Sequence record: HM035025
Strand: one strand, 5' to 3'
Source: Shigella phage Shfl2
DNA: 64,000 bases
The notes below the pieces were generated by a model, which saw nothing but the letters and a program-made list of their open reading frames with translations, did not search any database and was not told the origin of the DNA. The number at the start of each line of letters is the position of its first letter. Position 1 is the stretch's first letter. The position numbers and the translations under genes were made by a program. Of this stretch, positions 22,812 through 34,450 are shown one piece after another.

Positions 22812-22841
22812 ATAGTACCACAGCTCAAACGGAAAGTAAAC
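22812..22841 (-). promoter_or_regulatory. Early promoter cassette (-35 GTTTAC, -10 TACTAT)
   Basis: Member of repeated promoter family. Confidence 0.55.
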
Positions 22842-23780: not shown

Positions 23781-23822
23781 ATATACCCCTTTAGTTAGAT
23801 AAATCTATTTATAACTTTTGCA

Positions 23823-24404
23823 CTAACCGAGCTTTTTAGTTAATTCATTCCAATGTTTTCTACACAAAGAAACATAAATTTCATCACCAATACAGATTTG
23901 ATTACCTTCTTTAACTGGTGTTCCATCTTCCATTAATCGAGCTGTCATAATCGCTTTTTTACCGCAATGACAAACTGCCTTCAGTTCAATAAGTTTATCT
24001 GCAATCGCCAAAAGTTCTTTAGAACCTTCAAACAATTTTCCAGCGAAATCAGTCCTTAATCCATAAGCCATAACAGGAACATTATATGTATCAACAATTC
24101 GACTCAATTGATGCACCTGTTCAGTTTTTAAAAATTGGGCTTCATCTACAAATACGCAATGAATATCTTTTTGTGCTTCAGCCCATTTATAGAACTCGAA
24201 AATATCCATATCATCTGTAATAATATTCGCTTCCTGTTTAATTCCAATGCGAGAAACGACTTCACAGACAGAATCGCGAGTATCAATAGCAGGCTTAAGA
24301 ACTAATACACTCATTCCACGTTCTTTATAATTATGCGCAGCAGTTAAAAGAGAAGCAGATTTTCCAGCATTCATTGCTGCATAAGTAAAAATTAAACTCG
24401 CCAT
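23823..24404 (-). CDS. tk: Thymidine kinase
   Basis: 193 aa; P-loop AAMNAGKS; C-terminal zinc-binding cysteines; matches T4 Tk. Confidence 0.92.
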   Translation of the reverse strand: MASLIFTYAAMNAGKSASLLTAAHNYKERGMSVLVLKPAIDTRDSVCEVVSRIGIKQEANIITDDMDIFEFYKWAEAQKDIHCVFVDEAQFLKTEQVHQLSRIVDTYNVPVMAYGLRTDFAGKLFEGSKELLAIADKLIELKAVCHCGKKAIMTARLMEDGTPVKEGNQICIGDEIYVSLCRKHWNELTKKLG

Positions 24405-24413
24405 ATCACCTTC

Positions 24414-24599
24414 TTAAAGCGTATTCACATAAGCTATTAATTCGTTTTCTTTCTTATCAAACCGATCAGCAAATTCTTCTTGCTGTTCGGGAGATAGCGG
24501 GCCGTATTCATCATAAAAGGTGTTTGCTTCTGTATGCTCATCTAGAAGTTCATGGATAAGCTCAAACAATTTATCTTTTTGTTCTTTACTCAGACTCAT
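24414..24599 (-). CDS. Hypothetical acidic protein (61 aa)
   Basis: ORF track. Confidence 0.45.
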   Translation of the reverse strand: MSLSKEQKDKLFELIHELLDEHTEANTFYDEYGPLSPEQQEEFADRFDKKENELIAYVNTL

Positions 24600-24769
24600 A
24601 TATTAATTTCCAGGAGTTTTAAAATAATTCGCTTTTGCTTAAATATTTCCATAGTTAAATGACCAGTATCTTTTTGACCGATTCCAATGGCAAAACCTTT
24701 ATTAACAGCGAGTTCAATTAAATTATCAAGCTCACGTAACACTTCGTATTGTAACTCAAAACTATTCAT
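24596..24769 (-). CDS. Small hypothetical protein (~57 aa, below ORF-track threshold)
   Basis: ATGA overlaps at both ends with neighbouring genes; MNSFELQYEVLRELDNLIEL... Confidence 0.35.
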   Translation of the reverse strand: MNSFELQYEVLRELDNLIELAVNKGFAIGIGQKDTGHLTMEIFKQKRIILKLLEINI

Positions 24770-24993
24770 TTTGGTTTACCTTCTTTAACGAAATCAGGAT
24801 AAGGATAAAATCCTGAATAAAATCCTTCACCTTTATGATTGATGCATCCTTTATTAGAACAATAGCACCAATAATCGAAATCACAAGCCATTTCATCGTT
24901 GCATAAAGCAAAAACAACCGGCCACTTACACTTTTCACAATGAGCATTTTTAAGAATACTAGTTTGGCTCATAACCATGTAACCTTTAAACAA
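24766..24993 (-). CDS. Cysteine-rich small protein (75 aa)
   Basis: Several CxxC/CxC motifs suggesting metal binding. Confidence 0.5.
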   Translation of the reverse strand: MFKGYMVMSQTSILKNAHCEKCKWPVVFALCNDEMACDFDYWCYCSNKGCINHKGEGFYSGFYPYPDFVKEGKPK

Positions 24994-25181
24994 TATTCTT
25001 CTACGTGCTGTTTACGACCTTTCTTATCAATAAAGGTATATTCAACGAATGTTCCAATATAGTCTTTATCTACATCATGAGGACTATTAATTGGGCATTT
25101 AGTACGGCAAATGCGTTCCCATTGACGAATAATTTCTGCTTTGTTTTTAGGATCAAACGGATGTGGGTAATGTACTTTCAT
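24969..25181 (-). CDS. Hypothetical protein (70 aa)
   Basis: ORF track. Confidence 0.45.
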   Translation of the reverse strand: MKVHYPHPFDPKNKAEIIRQWERICRTKCPINSPHDVDKDYIGTFVEYTFIDKKGRKQHVEEYCLKVTWL

Positions 25182-25632
25182 AATCCACCACTATTAAATC
25201 AATATCAGGAGTAAACATGTCGATTAATTTAGAAACCTTATCCCAATCACCGCCAGCAATACCACAACCTATGCGTGGAATGTAAATTACTGGTTTAAAC
25301 AAAAGGGTCTCTGCCTGTAGATTTAATTCTATCATGCAGTTTACTAAAGCACCATAATCAAGATTAGGACCCGGTTCGTATTGCGTATACAGGTTATAGC
25401 ACATACTAAATCCTGTAGGATTATGTTTAAAAACAATAGACATATCGCCTAATTTATCACGAGAACCATATTCAGTAGTGGTTTTATCTATTTCTAAAAT
25501 TTTAGGATAGGCCCTTGCTAATTGACCCGCTACACCTGAACCCATAGTATGAAAACAATTGCACCCGTGCGCAATAATATTACCTTGAAGAAATAGGGCG
25601 ACAATATCGCCCTTGATATATTTTACAATCAT
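25153..25632 (-). CDS. Macrodomain protein (predicted ADP-ribose binding / hydrolase), 159 aa
   Basis: N-terminal GDIVALFLQGNIIAHGCNCFHTMGSGVAGQLA and C-terminal IYIPRIGCGIAGGDW resemble macro-domain signature blocks. Confidence 0.55.
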   Translation of the reverse strand: MIVKYIKGDIVALFLQGNIIAHGCNCFHTMGSGVAGQLARAYPKILEIDKTTTEYGSRDKLGDMSIVFKHNPTGFSMCYNLYTQYEPGPNLDYGALVNCMIELNLQAETLLFKPVIYIPRIGCGIAGGDWDKVSKLIDMFTPDIDLIVVDYESTLPTSV

Positions 25633-25976
25633 CTAGTACTCAATCCTCGATTATAAGAATCTACTAAACGGTCAACCATTGAATGACAAGCGGCTTTATC
25701 TTTCTCCTCCGCAACTGAACATTCTAAGGTATTCCACTTTTTAGCATATCGTTTTAACAATGTATCATTTTTATATCTACTTGATTTATCTCTTTCTCCG
25801 TCTTTATATGCATATATTAATTTCTGCGCAAATTCAGCTTGGCATGCTTTATTTTTCCCACAATAATCTGCCGCAGTGCGGTTTACATATTCTCTAATTT
25901 CAGTATATGATGTATCTGCTGACGCATAAGCAGAAAATGAAATTAATCCTATACATAAAACCAAAATTTTAGTCAT
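25629..25976 (-). CDS. Small secreted protein with N-terminal signal peptide (115 aa); occupies the position of T4 vs
   Basis: Signal peptide MTKILVLCIGLISFSAYASA; four Cys; identity with T4 vs not verifiable here. Confidence 0.5.
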   Translation of the reverse strand: MTKILVLCIGLISFSAYASADTSYTEIREYVNRTAADYCGKNKACQAEFAQKLIYAYKDGERDKSSRYKNDTLLKRYAKKWNTLECSVAEEKDKAACHSMVDRLVDSYNRGLSTR

Positions 25977-26514
25977 TTACTATTTCCAAAAGTTTATTAT
26001 TTTTAAGGTAGTTAGCCTTTTCTAGGACTTCAGAAGCATATTTAGAACCTGCTTTAACATTCCATCCCGAATTATAAGAGGATATTGCTTTTCTTATATC
26101 GCCCTTATGTATATTTAACCAATAAGAAAGTTCAATGTACGCCCAGGAAGCTGAATTGGATCGTTTATTCAACATTCTTTTTATTTCAGCATCGGTCATA
26201 TTATAACCAAGTTCCTTAACTCTTGCTCGCATAGTAGGCAAATAATTTTGGAACATTCCATAAGCGTGATGCTTTGGTTTAGATTTTAAATTAACTCCGC
26301 CAGAGCTTTCTTGCCATAAAATAGCAGCCATTATATGACCTAATCCGCTCTTGTGGATATTTTTATGTGTTTTATATTTTCCATCCTTAGAAAATTGTTC
26401 CCCGAATTGATACGCGTAACGCATGTTATCGAGTTGGACATTACTGAAAGTATGCTCGGAGCTATGTGCCATCATTGAAATGGCCAATAGACCAGCGAGT
26501 AGTGCTTTTCTCAT
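25969..26514 (-). CDS. Secreted lytic transglycosylase-like protein (SLT domain), 181 aa
   Basis: Signal peptide; SLT-like motifs QESSG, GMFQ, SYNSGWN. Confidence 0.55.
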   Translation of the reverse strand: MRKALLAGLLAISMMAHSSEHTFSNVQLDNMRYAYQFGEQFSKDGKYKTHKNIHKSGLGHIMAAILWQESSGGVNLKSKPKHHAYGMFQNYLPTMRARVKELGYNMTDAEIKRMLNKRSNSASWAYIELSYWLNIHKGDIRKAISSYNSGWNVKAGSKYASEVLEKANYLKNNKLLEIVND

Positions 26515-26521
26515 GCTTACC

Positions 26522-26983
26522 TCATTGAGTTTTAATTACTGCTTTAGAAGCCTTTCCTGGTAAACGACGACTATTGATAATTGCCATCCTGCACTGAAGT
26601 GACGGGTCTTTGAACTTCGCATTAGGTTTACAAACTGTAAATCCAAGCCAAAGATTTCCATCTGTGATTTCTAAACGTCCAGGACGATATTCAACCCCAT
26701 CAATAAAATCCTCGTCAATGTCAGGACGCGGAGGCATACTTAGGAATTCATTAACTTCTAAAACATGGTCTTTTATTTTATGGAATAATTCAAAAACGTA
26801 TGTCTCATCAATCTCCCGTTGAATTGCGCGATCAAGAAGATGTTGAGAATATTTTAGATGAAACGATGAGACTCCTGCTGCTTTTGATGCCTCACGAATC
26901 TCATTGTTGATTTGACGAAACTCCGACTCAAAGTGACGACGAAGCTTATTTCGACGGATAAAAACTTCTGTGTTGATAGTCAT
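26522..26983 (-). CDS. regB: RegB site-specific endoribonuclease
   Basis: 153 aa; matches T4 RegB as recalled; preceded by an early promoter. Confidence 0.8.
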   Translation of the reverse strand: MTINTEVFIRRNKLRRHFESEFRQINNEIREASKAAGVSSFHLKYSQHLLDRAIQREIDETYVFELFHKIKDHVLEVNEFLSMPPRPDIDEDFIDGVEYRPGRLEITDGNLWLGFTVCKPNAKFKDPSLQCRMAIINSRRLPGKASKAVIKTQ

Positions 26984-27010
26984 GTTATTCTCCTCTTAAC
27001 TGATAGAAAA

Positions 27011-27040
27011 ATTATACCACAGTCAAGAGGAAAAGTAAAC
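27011..27040 (-). promoter_or_regulatory. Sigma70-type early promoter (-35 GTTTAC, extended -10 TGTGGTATAAT) upstream of regB
   Basis: Plus-strand attataccaca ... gtaaac. Confidence 0.6.
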
Positions 27041-27042
27041 AA

Positions 27043-27321
27043 TTATTCTTTAAATCTAATCAATTTATTCATAGACTTTGAAACTTCTGCACGAACCTCA
27101 TGTAGGTTTTTGAGTTGCTCAAGACGCTGCTCATAGTAAGCAATTTCATCTTCTTCGAGACAGTCCTGTGAATCTTCTTTAAGATAGCGTGCATAATCCT
27201 GGAAAGCGTTACGGACTACTTCCTGGAAGTCATCAAGACTTTGAATTTTCTTAGGAGCAACAGATACACGACGAGGGGCAGTATAATACTCATAACCAAA
27301 CCCTGCGCTTAATTGAGCCAT
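27043..27321 (-). CDS. Hypothetical protein (~92 aa from the ATG overlapping upstream stop; ORF track extends to 27363)
   Basis: ORF track; position of T4 vs.3. Confidence 0.45.
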
Positions 27322-27587
27322 TAATATTTTTCCTCTGGTTGGAACACAGCACGACAAGCCCACATACTGGCTTCTTTGAGTTTCGTTTTAGCAATAGTTA
27401 ACTGATCGAGGCTTTCAGCATAATTCTTCGCGAATTCACAGTCTTCACAATTATCTAGTGCTTCCCAAAATTCATCGTATAAAGCATCAAAGATAAGTCC
27501 TAAACGAACTTCAGCATCTTTAATAGCATTCACTTTACCGATTTTCTCTTCAGTATGTGGCTTATAACCCTTAATATCTTCAATCAT
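27321..27587 (-). CDS. Hypothetical protein (88 aa) in the position of T4 vs.4; candidate Acb2-type cyclic-oligonucleotide sponge
   Basis: Third ORF upstream of regB; size similar to vs.4; assignment by synteny only. Confidence 0.45.
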
Positions 27588-27801
27588 ATTTTACTTCCTC
27601 ACCAGTACCTAAATCATATTCAACTAAACGAATAGGCTCATGAATTCCATATCCTTGAACAGAAATTTCTGTCGTAGGATAAATTCCGTTAATATCGCCC
27701 ATGTTCCACGCTTCATTAAATTGCTGTTCGCCTGAATTACTAAACCATTCAGCGAAAGCATTTAGCACATCTTCAGAACCTTCAATAATTATCTTTGCCA
27801 T
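27580..27801 (-). CDS. Hypothetical protein (73 aa)
   Basis: ORF track. Confidence 0.45.
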   Translation of the reverse strand: MAKIIIEGSEDVLNAFAEWFSNSGEQQFNEAWNMGDINGIYPTTEISVQGYGIHEPIRLVEYDLGTGEEVKYD

Positions 27802-28163
27802 TACAGGCTCTCAGTAAAGGTACGAGCGATAACGTCGCGCTGCTGTTCCGGAGTCAGAGAGTTAAAGCGAACTGCATAACCGGATACACGGATGGTCAGC
27901 TGCGGATATTTTTCCGGATGCTTAACTGCATCTTCCAGAGTTTCACGACGCAGAACGTTTACGTTCAGGTGTTGACCACCTTCAATTTTAACCGTAGGTT
28001 GTGTTTCAATTTCAATTTCACGGGCATACAAACCATAGAAAATTTCTGGGTCTACAAAAGAGTCCTCTTTAAAAGTTTTAGAGACAATAATTCTTACTTG
28101 AATACCGTCTTCAAAATAAATAGTACCTTTATGCGTGCCTTCAAGAATTTGATATGCTTTCAT
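27801..28163 (-). CDS. Autonomous glycyl-radical cofactor (GrcA/YfiD-like)
   Basis: C-terminal 75 residues near-identical to E. coli GrcA as recalled ([61 protein letters not shown]) including the glycyl-radical RVSGY site. Confidence 0.85.
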
Positions 28164-28170
28164 ATAAACC

Positions 28171-28500
28171 TCAATTAGAAAATAAATTTATCCAAGATTG
28201 TTCTTTAATTAAAAATGGCTCAGAATCATATGCCATTAAACTTTGTGTAATTAGTCCTTTAAAAGGCCCATCAATAAATTCCATGGTAAAATATGGAATT
28301 TTATTCATTAGCCGTGCATTAGGAGCCGTGCACAAAACTCTGCATCCTTTGAATACGCCTTTTTGTAATTTGTATTGCTTAAGATAAAATTCGCTCAAAA
28401 TGTTATTTTTTGCCAAAATTTCAAAATGATTCACCAATTTATTTTTAATAGTTTTTGGCGAAAAATAAAGATATTCGAAAAGTTGCGAATCTGTCATCAT
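28171..28500 (-). CDS. Hypothetical protein (~109 aa; ORF track extends to 28551)
   Basis: Tandem ATGs at 28500/28497 overlap the stop of the upstream gene. Confidence 0.45.
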
Positions 28501-29084
28501 TGCATTCCAATCACAAAAAATTGAGGACGAGTAATACCACCAATGCAACATTTACTATTGCAGCAGTACTGTACAGTGTCAATATGAGCATCATAAATCT
28601 TATCCATATCAGGAGATTTGACAGGCTCATCAATTATATACAAAATTCGCGAAAGCGATAAACCTCTGAACTTGCTTCCTTTATTACCAATAAAACTGCG
28701 CACAGAATCAGTAAATAAGCGGAATCGAATATCATCATTAGAATAACGCGAAAATTCCTTTTTAATGTTATTTGCAGAAATTTTAGCGTAAGCTGAAGTA
28801 TTAGAAAGAACAATAACTGTTCCGCCATCATACAACCAATTAGCAGCAAAGTTAGTCACAGCAATTGATTTACCGGATTGACGTCCACCATCTAGTCGAA
28901 GTGTACAATACTGTTTAAGTAAGTCTTCAAATGATAGGATATAATCGTTTTTACAAATTTCTTCTACTCTAGCATCAGAATGGTGTGTAAAAGCATTCAT
29001 CAGGATAGATAAGGACCAGTTAAAAATGTTCTCATTTCTTCTCTCTCTAAGTTTGGGCCATTCCATGGCGCATGAATTGTCCAT
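28497..29084 (-). CDS. Small P-loop NTPase (up to 195 aa; true start uncertain, possibly Met at 29000)
   Basis: Walker A GGRQSGKS and Walker B ILYIIDEP; ORF 5' end overlaps an 80-bp repeat and no clear SD at any candidate start. Confidence 0.45.
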   Translation of the reverse strand: MDNSCAMEWPKLRERRNENIFNWSLSILMNAFTHHSDARVEEICKNDYILSFEDLLKQYCTLRLDGGRQSGKSIAVTNFAANWLYDGGTVIVLSNTSAYAKISANNIKKEFSRYSNDDIRFRLFTDSVRSFIGNKGSKFRGLSLSRILYIIDEPVKSPDMDKIYDAHIDTVQYCCNSKCCIGGITRPQFFVIGMQ

Positions 29085-29127
29085 TTCTGTATTTACCCAT
29101 TACCGCACTTGGGCTCGACCTTATTAC
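29048..29127. repeat. ~80-bp direct repeat, copy A (degenerate hairpin), 3' of the ipII-locus gene
   Basis: About 75% identical by eye to copy B at 29697-29776. Confidence 0.6.
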
Positions 29128-29189
29128 AGGTTGGCGGGAATCCCTCACAAAATCATGAGGTCCAGGTTGTTCCCATATTTCTTATTTGC

Positions 29190-29663
29190 TTATTTGAACG
29201 ATTTAACGTACTGAATAGAACCTTTACTATTCACGAAAGCGATTTTACCATTTTTATTATACATGGTAGCAGTACGCTGATAGCCGTAAGTTTGCTTACC
29301 AGATTGATAACCAACTAATGCAAAATTATCTTCACCCATTTTATTCTGTTTAGCGCGAATGCGTTCATGACCATGTGCCATAAGAACCTTAGCATCACCA
29401 GTTGCAATGGATCGACGAGTTTTTTCATCTTCAACTGTATTAACAAAGTCGTCAAATGAATCAAATTTAGCGTGAGATTTATTATACAGTTTTCCATCTA
29501 CTGCATAATTATATCCCTGTACATCCATCTCAACTTCTGTACCATCATCCAATACAGCAGTGATTTTCTGTCCTTTTTTAAATTTCAAAAGATCAGTAAA
29601 AGATTCAGCAATAATTTGAGAATTAATAGCTGCTTCAGTAATAAATTCTTGATATGTTTTCAT
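29190..29663 (-). CDS. Internal protein with capsid-targeting sequence (ipII locus; 157 aa)
   Basis: N-terminus MKTYQEFITE|AA with the (L/I)xE prohead-protease site; directly downstream of ipIII. Confidence 0.65.
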   Translation of the reverse strand: MKTYQEFITEAAINSQIIAESFTDLLKFKKGQKITAVLDDGTEVEMDVQGYNYAVDGKLYNKSHAKFDSFDDFVNTVEDEKTRRSIATGDAKVLMAHGHERIRAKQNKMGEDNFALVGYQSGKQTYGYQRTATMYNKNGKIAFVNSKGSIQYVKSFK

Positions 29664-29696
29664 GTGTTTCCTTTAAATGTAAATAGTTTTATTCTT

Positions 29697-29776
29697 TAAG
29701 TTTGGGACAATTCGCACGCATGAATTGTCCGTTTCTATATTTATCTATTACCGGGTTCGAACTCGGCTTTATTAAG
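29697..29776. repeat. ~80-bp direct repeat, copy B, with perfect 9-bp hairpin GGACAATTC..GAATTGTCC, between ipIII and the ipII-locus gene
   Basis: Overlaps ipIII stop codon. Confidence 0.6.
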
Positions 29777-30350
29777 AATTACCACGGGCTGCATTAGCAA
29801 CGGCATACGCGTACTGAACATTAGCGTCTTTAAACGTACCTTTAGAGGTATCTATTTCTGCCTTAAAGCCGCCTTTAGTCATAACATCGGCAAATTCTTT
29901 ACGGAAAGCCATTGCATCAAGACCTTTCCATGATGATTTATGCTTGGCGAATTCAAGACCAGCGTAGTTGACAGCCTTAGCTAATTTATTATCAATAACC
30001 CATTTACCAGCTTTAGGCACAAACTTCGGGCCTTTCTGTTTAGAGAACAGTTTTAAATTCCAGCGGCGAAGGTCACTGTCGGCTTTAACAAAAGCTGCGT
30101 CTAAGTTACTAGCAACAACATCTTCAATATGAGCAAATTTAAGTCCGTCAACTTCAATATTTAGATCGGTACGCCAGCGAAGTCCTTCCCAAGCGAAGGC
30201 TTTAAAATCGGAAGCTTTTGTAGCTAAGTATCGTTCAATAGGGGCTGTTTTAGGGTCAAAGCCGTTTCCTCGGTAAGTCCACTCGTCTTTATTAATGCCT
30301 TTGGCCTTTTCAACAGAAGCTTCAGCGATAAATTCTTTATACGTTTTCAT
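29772..30350 (-). CDS. ipIII: Internal protein III
   Basis: 192 aa; N-terminal CTS MKTYKEFIAE; near-identical to T4 IPIII as recalled. Confidence 0.85.
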   Translation of the reverse strand: MKTYKEFIAEASVEKAKGINKDEWTYRGNGFDPKTAPIERYLATKASDFKAFAWEGLRWRTDLNIEVDGLKFAHIEDVVASNLDAAFVKADSDLRRWNLKLFSKQKGPKFVPKAGKWVIDNKLAKAVNYAGLEFAKHKSSWKGLDAMAFRKEFADVMTKGGFKAEIDTSKGTFKDANVQYAYAVANAARGNS

Positions 30351-30387
30351 GTGTTTCCTTTAAATATTTTAATTAGTAACTGTGAAT

Positions 30388-30417
30388 ATACTATCACAGT
30401 TCCAAGAGAAAGTAAAC
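30388..30417 (-). promoter_or_regulatory. Early promoter cassette (-35 GTTTAC, -10 TAGTAT) with AACTGTGA..TCACAGTT stem-loop, upstream of ipIII
   Basis: Between e and ipIII. Confidence 0.55.
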
Positions 30418-30421
30418 AACT

Positions 30422-31390
<969 letters not shown>

Positions 31391-34420: not shown

Positions 34421-34450
34421 ATAATACCATGGAAGAACAGGGATGTAAAC
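34421..34450 (-). promoter_or_regulatory. Early promoter cassette (-35 GTTTAC, -10 TATTAT)
   Basis: Member of repeated promoter family. Confidence 0.55.

Follow-up and report, generated by a model that had tools for sequence, protein, structure and literature searches.

The two imperfect direct repeats that flank the internal-protein (IP) gene ip4 in the window, the 64-kb stretch of a T4-like phage (Tequatrovirus) analysed here, probably differ in their history. Copy A forms the core of the vs.8 leader. Copy B appears to have arisen when about 75 nt of this leader, by now diverged, were pasted into the spacer that follows ipIII, in place of an early-promoter/stem-loop cassette (PeSL). All genes concerned lie on the minus strand in the order e, ipIII, ip4 and vs.8, so that the element reads as the reverse complement of the version quoted in the preliminary description of this DNA. 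The gene ipIII (29772–30350) encodes an internal virion protein of 192 aa that matches T4 ipIII (phrog_5341, E 6e-117), and ip4 (29190–29663), named ipIV in phage PST, encodes one of 157 aa (phrog_3155, ‘internal virion protein’, E 6e-102). From its universally in-frame ATG, vs.8 (28497–29000) encodes 167 aa (phrog_1488, E 2.8e-74, profile positions 12–177). The spacer between e and ipIII (30351–30421, minus strand) holds a cassette of the PeSL type, in which a T4-type early promoter (GTTTAC...TAGTAT) overlaps a stem-loop. At this site a T4 early promoter and terminator are annotated in SA21RB, and a stem-loop with -10 boxes in the T4 record X04567. In the following spacer, it is a cassette of this type whose place B takes.

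The relation between A and B was established by gapped blastn searches of the 64-kb window with either copy. A (29044–29126) and B (29693–29774), both read on the minus strand, are 77.6% identical over 85 columns with an E value of 1.6e-12, which rules out chance similarity and confirms two imperfect direct repeats that had been put by eye at ~80 bp and ~75% identity. The self-comparison of the region that the preliminary description had proposed was run as a blastn and repeat search, and each copy matched only the other; there is no third copy in the 64-kb window, where the remaining blastn matches all have E > 0.08. Without gaps, the similarity consists of 58 nt at 79% (29069–29126 and 29717–29774) and, at an offset of 1 nt, 17 nt at 88% (29044–29060 and 29693–29709). 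The longest identical runs are of 14 nt (GGACAATTCATGCG) and 10 nt (CCCAAACTTA). The homology is confined to ~85 nt and goes no further on either side. The differences are clustered at two places, and at each of them they render a palindrome of B perfect or near-perfect. In 379 records, there are at most two places of the A/B type per complete genome. Judged by their sequences, A and B are true paralogues within the variable IP locus, forming direct repeats around ip4.

Copy A belongs to a block of ~150 nt that precedes vs.8 in T4 and all relatives. This leader starts with a conserved hairpin, GGGAAC...CCUCAUGAUUUUGUGAGG...UUCCC (29136–29174, minus strand), which is found in both MFE and centroid folds, is kept in 21 relatives and is annotated as a rho-independent terminator in SA21RB. 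The hairpin lies between the ip4 stop codon and A, outside the repeat. The two copies had been placed immediately 3' of ipIII and immediately 3' of the gene at the ipII locus. The first placement holds, as B adjoins ipIII and starts on its TAATAA stop codons, but A starts 63 nt past the stop codon of the other gene, behind the conserved hairpin. The sequence of A is also found in T4 (AF158101), where it follows denV. Its upstream neighbour is denV in T4 and JE01, ip4 in the window, F1 and PST, an ipII/denV remnant in W143, and ipIII in Shinka and IME340, while the distance from A to vs.8 stays constant.

The longest open reading frame of vs.8 extends to 29084, within copy A. A is nevertheless counted as non-coding because its reading frame differs among phages (T4 uses another frame, a stop codon interrupts it in F1 and phiC600P9, and two frameshifts offset each other in the window) and because the PHROG profile of vs.8 begins downstream of it; a protein-coding N-terminal extension of vs.8 is ruled out on the same grounds. 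On the opposite strand, an open reading frame at 29026–29214 (+) is open in all relatives and has no conserved start codon, and its substitutions are too few to judge.

The nucleotide diversity of A (pi = 0.017) is about 10 times lower than that at the third codon positions of vs.8 (0.177). Promoter and terminator scans, Rfam and folds gave no recognised signal that explains this conservation. As the preliminary description had it, A carries a degenerate version of the hairpin of B: the counterpart at 29056–29082 (minus strand) is quasi-palindromic, though not stable, its fold being on par with shuffled sequences (z = 0.06). The fold of the whole A leader as a single sequence is not better than shuffles either (z = 0.71), and its variation is too low for covariation. 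Either A is under strong constraint, or it is homogenised as the right-hand homology arm in swaps of IP/denV cassettes between co-infecting phages. Since its conservation is unexplained by recognised signals, A may have a function common to B. We consider it rather unlikely, though conceivable, that A is an unrecognised and strongly constrained cis-element of T4, of which B would be a paralogue being re-used. Such an element could act as a leader RNA or as a protein-binding DNA site controlling vs.8 and the genes downstream, or it could be a dedicated recombination anchor that keeps the IP/denV anti-defence cassettes exchangeable.

The distribution of B is quite different. A search for the element in other T4-like phages, as had been proposed, was successful for A, which is matched in >360 phage records, but much less so for B, which was matched at ≥80% coverage by just 14 of 50,697 phage records and in each of them lies immediately behind ipIII. 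Besides the phage analysed here, ECML-134 and JE01 carry B. Exact-pattern scans found no B in IMG/VR or metagenome contigs, and the five matching IMG/VR contigs contain A only. With the same flanks, the spacer after ipIII exists as three alleles, one of 41 nt (PST, SA21RB), the T4 PeSL of 115 nt, and B of 108 nt; in the window, B fills the spacer between ipIII and ip4 from the TAATAA stops. B has a diversity of 0.080 compared with 0.10 at the third positions of ipIII, a near-neutral rate. Its edges are short homologies to A, namely TAATAA(A/G)G(C/T)CGA on the left and AGAATAAAA on the right.

We suggest that, in a minority lineage, B would have replaced the early-promoter/stem-loop cassette that in T4 separates ipIII from the following IP gene. 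As short homologies to A mark both ends of the patch, it was most likely copied in by UvsX-dependent minihomology recombination, although these edge microhomologies are short and AT-rich and could be fortuitous. The direction of copying, presumably from A to B, is taken from abundance and conservation and not from a rooted tree. The 22% divergence between the copies would mean that the donor is old, or that it was a diverged relative absent from databases. Identities of 6–12 nt are found at the edges of deletions and patches of this locus (G2133, B), and G2133 has a microhomology deletion at GGTAAA in the same locus. For the vs.8 leader, G2133 shows that loss of the left half and of the upstream hairpin is tolerated. 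Similarly, Cas12a cuts in T4 ipIII were healed with minihomologies of 6–7 nt, TATATT and CACAATT (PMC8262927). In our own reading of the T4 sequence, which is not a statement of that paper, these two motifs appear to be located in the intergenic hairpins flanking ipIII. The end joining described for T4 (Wu et al. 2021, PMC8262927) thus resembles the present case in that 6–12-nt identities bound deletions and patches, but the paper covers deletions after CRISPR cuts, whereas the insertion of B would need a templated, copy-paste version of the process.

The arrangement of the repeats had been read as a recombination substrate for cassette exchange. On this reading, ip4 would be excised or inserted as a unit, and a crossover between A and B would delete ~648 bp and leave one hybrid element. 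The direct repeats do bracket exactly one variable anti-defence-type gene, their identical runs of 14 and 10 nt exceed the 6–7-nt minihomologies that heal cuts in T4 ipIII (PMC8262927), and PeSL repeats around ORFs form mini-circles in RB49 and phi1 (PMC2839356). A and B are in this sense a possible substrate for deletion of ip4, as T4 deletes between far shorter repeats. The predicted product was, however, absent: a 414-nt query of the A × B deletion junction (ipIII-B/A-vs.8) gave 769 matching records among 50,697 phage records, all with two-piece matches only. In phages without ip4 or ipII, among them Shinka, IME340 and many more, the joints lie at other places. Moreover, ip4 occurs without B in PST, SA21RB, F1 and phiC600P9, and B precedes ipII instead of ip4 in W143, JE01 and VIPECOOM01. 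The identity of 78% with a longest run of 14 nt is also far short of the roughly 50 nt that ordinary homologous recombination of T4 needs (a figure quoted in PMC8262927). An exchange cassette is therefore an unlikely account of the pair.

Where exchange did take place is better documented at two other points. A repeat made of the IP leader, the RBS and the capsid-targeting sequence precedes both ip4 (29625–29678) and ipIII (30312–30365) on the minus strand, with 87% identity between the two over 54 nt. Phage F1 corresponds exactly to the product of a deletion between these two leaders, with the crossover within a 22-nt identical run of the repeat. The other documented exchange point is the start of the vs.8 leader. 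The earlier reading of A and B as repeats in a known variable IP locus is thus right in that they are true paralogues flanking ip4, but the documented exchange points lie elsewhere.

Copy B contains a perfect hairpin with a 9-bp stem (29705–29730, minus strand), supported by the fold and by allele comparison. The preliminary description had the stem right, but the loop is of 8 nt instead of nine. The hairpin reads GGACAATTC-GCACGCAT-GAATTGTCC on the plus strand and GGACAAUUC-AUGCGUGC-GAAUUGUCC in the sense RNA, and has a predicted stability of -12.4 kcal/mol (z = -4.2), with none of 200 shuffles folding as well. Its stem is intact in all seven distinct alleles, with one compensatory double change from A-U to G-C, a covariation of a single pair that is statistically weak, as 131 of 500 shuffles reach the same support. 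A palindrome kept at the DNA level would yield the same allele pattern. The loop occurs in both orientations and was flipped twice independently. A second, 16-nt near-palindrome in B (CCGAGTTCGAACCCGG on the sense strand; 29751–29766, minus strand) is without counterpart in A and folds weakly, its pairing being mostly kept across the alleles. With the covariance models of Rfam 15, the only matches were chance-level ones to snoRNA and thermometer families (E > 1), none of them on A or B. A tRNA-like or other known RNA was also considered and rejected, as B's GGTTCGAA-like motif does not qualify as a T-arm and the Rfam search was negative.

How the imperfect palindrome of A would have become the perfect 9-bp hairpin of B is suggested by the pattern of changes. 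Loop inversion is a signature of intrastrand switching at inverted repeats, and quasi-palindrome mutation by template switching was reportedly described by Ripley and co-workers in T4 rIIB. B likewise has clustered differences that perfect palindromes and a loop inverted twice. Switching of this kind may be the source of the changes in B, but an RNA hairpin favoured by selection would end up in the same state.

In the sense direction, the scan found no terminator within 28800–30500, and the RNA after the stem of B reads CAAACUUAAAG with no direct U-tract. We argue that, as B has neither a promoter nor a U-tract, ip4 would be transcribed by read-through from promoters upstream of ipIII and e. 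In the mRNA, the hairpin of B is most likely an intercistronic stability or pause element that would guard the 3' end of ipIII or a processed 5' end of ip4. Such a role is dispensable, since the 41-nt spacer of PST and SA21RB has no hairpin. Comparable hairpins are known from T4, where the inverted repeats A/A', B/B' and C/C' (X04567; Valerie et al. 1986) occupy the same intercistronic positions in the e-ipIII-ipII-denV spacers, are also without a clear U-tract and are annotated as putative terminators, of uncertain activity. They differ in sequence and enclose the -10 box of an early promoter, whereas the hairpin of B originates in the vs.8 leader and has nothing recognisable inside it.

Read on the plus strand, B could be taken for a pair of antisense terminators that would keep late antisense transcripts out of the IP genes. 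Two sites with a hairpin and a T-run lie on this strand inside B (29705–29730 and 29751–29766), where 0.9 ± 1.0 are expected; the second is called terminator-like on the plus strand only, the plus-strand fold of B has z = -2.6, and no stretch is better conserved between A and B than the T-rich tail beside the hairpin. Yet there is no plus-strand gene and no plus-strand TATAAATA upstream within positions 1–41,584. A retains the T-rich tail without a stable hairpin, five of the seven B alleles (the CCTGG variant) carry an A.C mismatch in the plus-strand form of the second hairpin, and the element is missing from most relatives. We regard this reading as improbable.

Promoter searches point in the same direction as the read-through of ip4. 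The PeSL-type early promoter TTTACW-N16-18-TAYWAT has 12 matches in the window, with ~1 expected, and none in A or B; the consensus used for the test was TTTACW-N17-TAYWAT, as in PST and T4. A sigma70 scan found nothing within A or B, and a search by eye for a middle promoter (MotA box TGCTT) found none in either copy. The similarity between the copies could have been limited to a short promoter-like motif, the outcome that the preliminary description had named as its refutation, but it spans ~85 nt with no promoter in A or B. Inside vs.8, TGCTTTTA was rejected as a promoter because it has no correctly spaced -10.

There is also a small chance that B supplies a weak late promoter of the gp55 type, whose transcript would start shortly ahead of the hairpin, with the latter as a 5' stabiliser of the late ip4 mRNA. 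Head assembly requires internal proteins late in infection, and there is no exact late box TATAAATA between e and vs.8, nor indeed anywhere in 23814–30929; the nearest exact ones are two upstream of e at 30930–30950. On the sense strand ~85 nt before the start of ip4, B has a GATAAATA box that matches TATAAATA at seven of eight positions in the window and in ESh24. However, four of the seven B alleles and all copies of A read GGTAAATA here, a match at six of eight with the second position changed, and phages with the short spacer allele still carry ip4 without any such box.

The preliminary description had further suggested a duplicated module from the arrangement IP gene/element/IP gene/element, which did not hold up, as A is part of the vs.8 leader independently of the upstream gene; a tandem duplication of an ancestral unit of IP gene and 3' element, with A and B as its remnants, would suit the order ipIII/B/ip4/A and the duplicated 5' leader common to the IP genes, but is very improbable because the 63 nt with a hairpin between ip4 and A belong to vs.8 just as A does, the T4 block follows denV and not an IP gene, A is tied at a fixed distance to vs.8 and not to what lies upstream, and the homology ends so soon.

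With B read as a pasted copy of the vs.8 leader core, the locus can be compared with the PeSLs, short stem-loop intergenic cassettes of hyperplastic regions (Arbiol et al. 2010, PMC2839356; Comeau et al. 2014, PMC4122927). Like a PeSL, B is located between a stop codon, that of ipIII, and the Shine-Dalgarno sequence and ATG of the next small variable gene, here with the leader of ip4, while A precedes vs.8 next to a variable cassette. The flanking genes differ between close relatives, and B sits in the same slot as the T4 cassette, with its hairpin 41 nt before the start codon of ip4, compared with 37 nt for the T4 PeSL hairpin before ipII. In contrast to PeSLs, A and B are without the defining sigma70-like early promoter, they are two copies per genome instead of a dispersed family, and no chimeric A/B junction occurs in the phage records. 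A stable stem-loop, another feature of PeSLs, is present in B (z = -4.2) but not in A (z = 0.06).

Internal proteins act as anti-defence factors that the phage injects: GmrSD is blocked by IPI, and E. coli ECOR17 can be infected only with IPIII (PMC9391042). How IP genes are shuffled therefore matters for the host range of phages and for engineering therapeutic T4-like phages. Our analysis places the exchange points of the ipIII/ipII locus at the vs.8 leader and at the repeat of IP leader and capsid-targeting sequence. It shows that the place of a promoter cassette can be taken by a hairpin that has no promoter and is copied from a leader nearby, and it flags a very conserved, unannotated block of 150 nt in T4 itself. 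We would like to point out that current views are not overturned by these observations. The stray copy B is most likely an ordinary by-product of short-homology recombination in a region known to be hypervariable. The locus shows a variant of the known behaviour of T4 hyperplastic regions and provides a worked example of their dynamics.

Copies A (29044-29126) and B (29693-29774) are a true pair of direct repeats, as the preliminary description had proposed. A gapped search aligns them at 77.6% identity over 85 columns (E 1.6e-12) and, run with each copy against the whole window, matches only the other copy. An ungapped repeat search recovers the pair as two pieces with a one-base offset, one of 58 nt (79%) and one of 17 nt (88%). 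The host of the repeats is a T4-like phage (Tequatrovirus), and over the 2 kb around them its identity is 94.7% with phage ECML-134 and 91% with T4. Every gene from position 1 to ~41.5 kb is carried on the minus strand, along which e (lysozyme, 30422-30916) is followed by ipIII (29772-30350), ip4 (a 157-aa internal-protein gene at 29190-29663, named ipIV/Ip4 in PST and RB14) and vs.8 (28497-29000, longest ORF to 29084). T4 has the order e-ipIII-ipII-denV-vs.8, and denV is absent from the window phage. Just upstream of e, on the same strand, are two tandem exact TATAAATA boxes (30930-30937 and 30943-30950), which presumably correspond to the known T4 lysozyme late promoters; no late promoter lies closer on the upstream side of ipIII and ip4. 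The early-promoter consensus of PST and T4, TTTACW-N16-18-TAYWAT, is found 12 times in the window against ~1 expected, 11 of them on the minus strand (e.g. 27011-27039, 22812-22840 and 34421-34449), and marks the region's early transcription units.

That both repeats lie directly 3' of internal-protein (IP) genes is true of B, whose start coincides with the ipIII stop codons TAATAA, but not of A, which begins 63 nt past the ip4 stop codon, with a separate conserved hairpin in between. Nor do the copies form a module with an IP gene, since A stays with vs.8 whatever gene is upstream, and B goes with ipII or ip4. A is ahead of vs.8 at a fixed distance in every one of 17 GenBank loci and 5 IMG/VR contigs, while its upstream neighbour is denV (T4, JE01, VIPECOOM01), ip4 (the window, F1, PST, SA21RB, phiC600P9), a gutted denV (W143) or ipIII (Shinka, IME340, GRNsp7). 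T4 carries the same block downstream of denV (GGGAACAACCTGGACCTCATGATT...TGTAATAAGGTCGAGCCCAAG.GCGGTAATGGGTAAATACAGAAATGGACAATTCATG...GGCCCAAACTTA), and in all but 14 of the 379 phage records matched by copy B as query, what is hit is the A-type sequence. In the ipII-vs.8 spacer of W143 (locus L007), denV is reduced to its first and last few codons.

We rejected A as coding sequence because its reading frames disagree among phages and the PHROG vs.8 profile starts downstream of it: T4 has one frame across A, most relatives have another over the last 40 nt only, a stop codon interrupts the region in F1 and phiC600P9, and the window has two compensating frameshifts. The latter, +1 and -1 and ~40 nt apart at 29000-29084 relative to most relatives (GAGAGAGAAG; CTATCCTG for CTATCCCTG), replace the usual MRTFLTGPYLSL start peptide of vs.8, and a short ORF terminates in TGATG, which overlaps the ATG that follows; they could be genuine or a homopolymer sequencing error. 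Opposite A and the leader hairpin, a 62-codon antisense frame (29026-29214, plus strand) is open in all relatives examined, among which it has no conserved start codon and varies too little to be judged. Nucleotide diversity in 21 sequences is 0.017 in the A core, against 0.177 at third and 0.030 at second codon positions of vs.8, and searches of A for promoters, terminators, Rfam families and significant folds turned up nothing to account for it. The ~215-nt block 28951-29164, comprising the leader hairpin, A and the first ~90 nt of vs.8, is likewise far more conserved than the vs.8 body (0.005-0.04 vs 0.18 at third codon positions in 21 relatives), again with no accounting signal found in it. 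In phage G2133 (locus L024, 800-915), a deletion at a GGTAAA microhomology has taken out denV and the leader hairpin together with the left half of A, so half of A is dispensable.

Copy B is one of three forms of the post-ipIII spacer, which share the ends TAATAAAGC... (left) and ...TATTTACATTTAAAGGAAACAYATG (right): 41 nt without a hairpin (PST, SA21RB), 115 nt with an early promoter within a 12-bp hairpin (T4; annotated in GenBank X04567 as B/B', an inverted repeat and putative terminator that holds a -10 box), and the 108-nt B form. B is rare, with at least 80% query coverage in only 14 phage records, and exact-pattern scans did not find it in IMG/VR or metagenome contigs. The gene behind it is ipII in W143, JE01 and VIPECOOM01, whose B matches the window copy at 99-100% identity, and ip4 in the window, ECML-134, G4498, ECO07P2, ESh24 and VEc74. 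Since ip4 is also found without B (after the short spacer in PST and SA21RB, directly after the e spacer in F1, after another IP gene in phiC600P9), B is not tied to ip4. Its diversity (pi = 0.080, vs 0.10 at ipIII third positions) shows a roughly neutral rate of evolution.

The perfect 9-bp stem described in B is present (29705-29730, -12.4 kcal/mol, z = -4.2), though its loop is 8 nt rather than 9, and the version in A is indeed degenerate, its fold being on a par with that of shuffled sequence. Where A and B differ, the changes fall in two patches, each of which makes a palindrome in B, as quasi-palindrome template switching, a mechanism from the T4 rIIB literature, would produce. The stem survives in each of the seven distinct B alleles. 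In ESh24 one of its pairs has gone from A-U to G-C by a double change and another from G-C to G-U; with this single compensatory pair, covariation statistics are weak (131/500 shuffles). The loop is found in both orientations on two allele backgrounds, GCACGCAT in TB004 (locus L012) vs ATGCGTGC of the window type, and ACACGCAT in VEc74 (locus L016) vs ATGCGTGT of the G4498 type (hairpin at ~1650-1680 in either locus). This indicates that the spacer between the 9-bp inverted repeats has flipped twice independently; it is therefore the stem that is retained and not the loop sequence. A classical terminator is ruled out on the sense strand by the lack of a U-tract after the stem; on the plus strand a simple scan calls both B palindromes terminator-like, and nothing is transcribed towards them within the window. 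The hairpin is 41 nt before the ip4 ATG, and the promoter-bearing T4 hairpin 37 nt before that of ipII. B is best read as a putative promoter-less intercistronic RNA hairpin that would act on mRNA stability or on pausing, ip4 sharing a transcript with ipIII; the hairpin is dispensable, since the short spacer allele lacks one.

The repeats had also been proposed as a recombination substrate. This could be mechanistically possible, as their identical runs of 14 and 10 nt exceed laboratory minihomologies, but the predicted junction was not found: a 414-nt query of the A x B product (ipIII 3' end, B left part, A right part, vs.8 5' end) had no single-piece match, its top matches all being in two pieces, and the many natural ipIII-vs.8 fusions of the Shinka type are joined elsewhere. 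A real, documented crossover site is instead the region's second repeat, of IP leader, ribosome-binding site and capsid-targeting sequence (29625-29678 and 30312-30365; 87% identity across 54 nt, 22 of them in an unbroken identical run). In F1 (locus L004, 633-800, gene-sense strand), which has neither ipIII nor B, the e spacer and an ipIII-type leader are joined directly to the coding part of ip4, the changeover falling within TTTAAAGGAAACACATGAAAAC in this repeat, and the ipII and ip4 alternatives behind identical B also switch there. On the other side, genomes with ip4, denV or remnants become homologous again at ATGGGAAC, where the vs.8 leader starts. The exchangeable unit thus extends between the leader/capsid-targeting repeat and the vs.8 leader, the latter including copy A.

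How B may have arisen is suggested by its edges. The A/B homology begins at TAATAA(A/G)G(C/T)CGA, native to both the ipIII tail (TAATAAGGCCGA in IME340) and A (TAATAAGGTCGA), and ends at AGAATAAAA, which the IP leader shares with A, at whose right end it stands in most relatives (GAGAATAAAATG). Experimentally, T4 joins breaks at 3-13-nt minihomologies in a UvsX-dependent manner, and the deletions seen most often when Cas12a had cut ipIII were joined at TATATT and CACAATT (PMC8262927), which by our own reading sit in the T4 spacer hairpins on either side of ipIII. Taken together, the homology edges and the short-homology joints at this locus lead us to infer that short-homology joining brought B in as a patch from a vs.8 leader, which would have displaced the promoter cassette.

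Among described systems, B comes closest to PeSL, a composite cassette of early promoter and stem-loop for which a role in the modular shuffling of T4-like phages, PST and T4 among them, has been proposed (PMC2839356, PMC4122927). B resembles it in position, hairpin and association with a variable gene. However, the defining early promoter was not found in B by consensus pattern or promoter scan, A and B are not a dispersed family, and the 414-nt junction query found no chimeric A/B derivatives; B is therefore a PeSL-like variant and not a member. The original reading is thus partly supported, in that A and B are real paralogues in a shuffling-prone locus, though neither an IP-gene module nor a demonstrated exchange site. 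What is new here, modestly, is a promoter-less hairpin cassette that would derive from the neighbouring leader.
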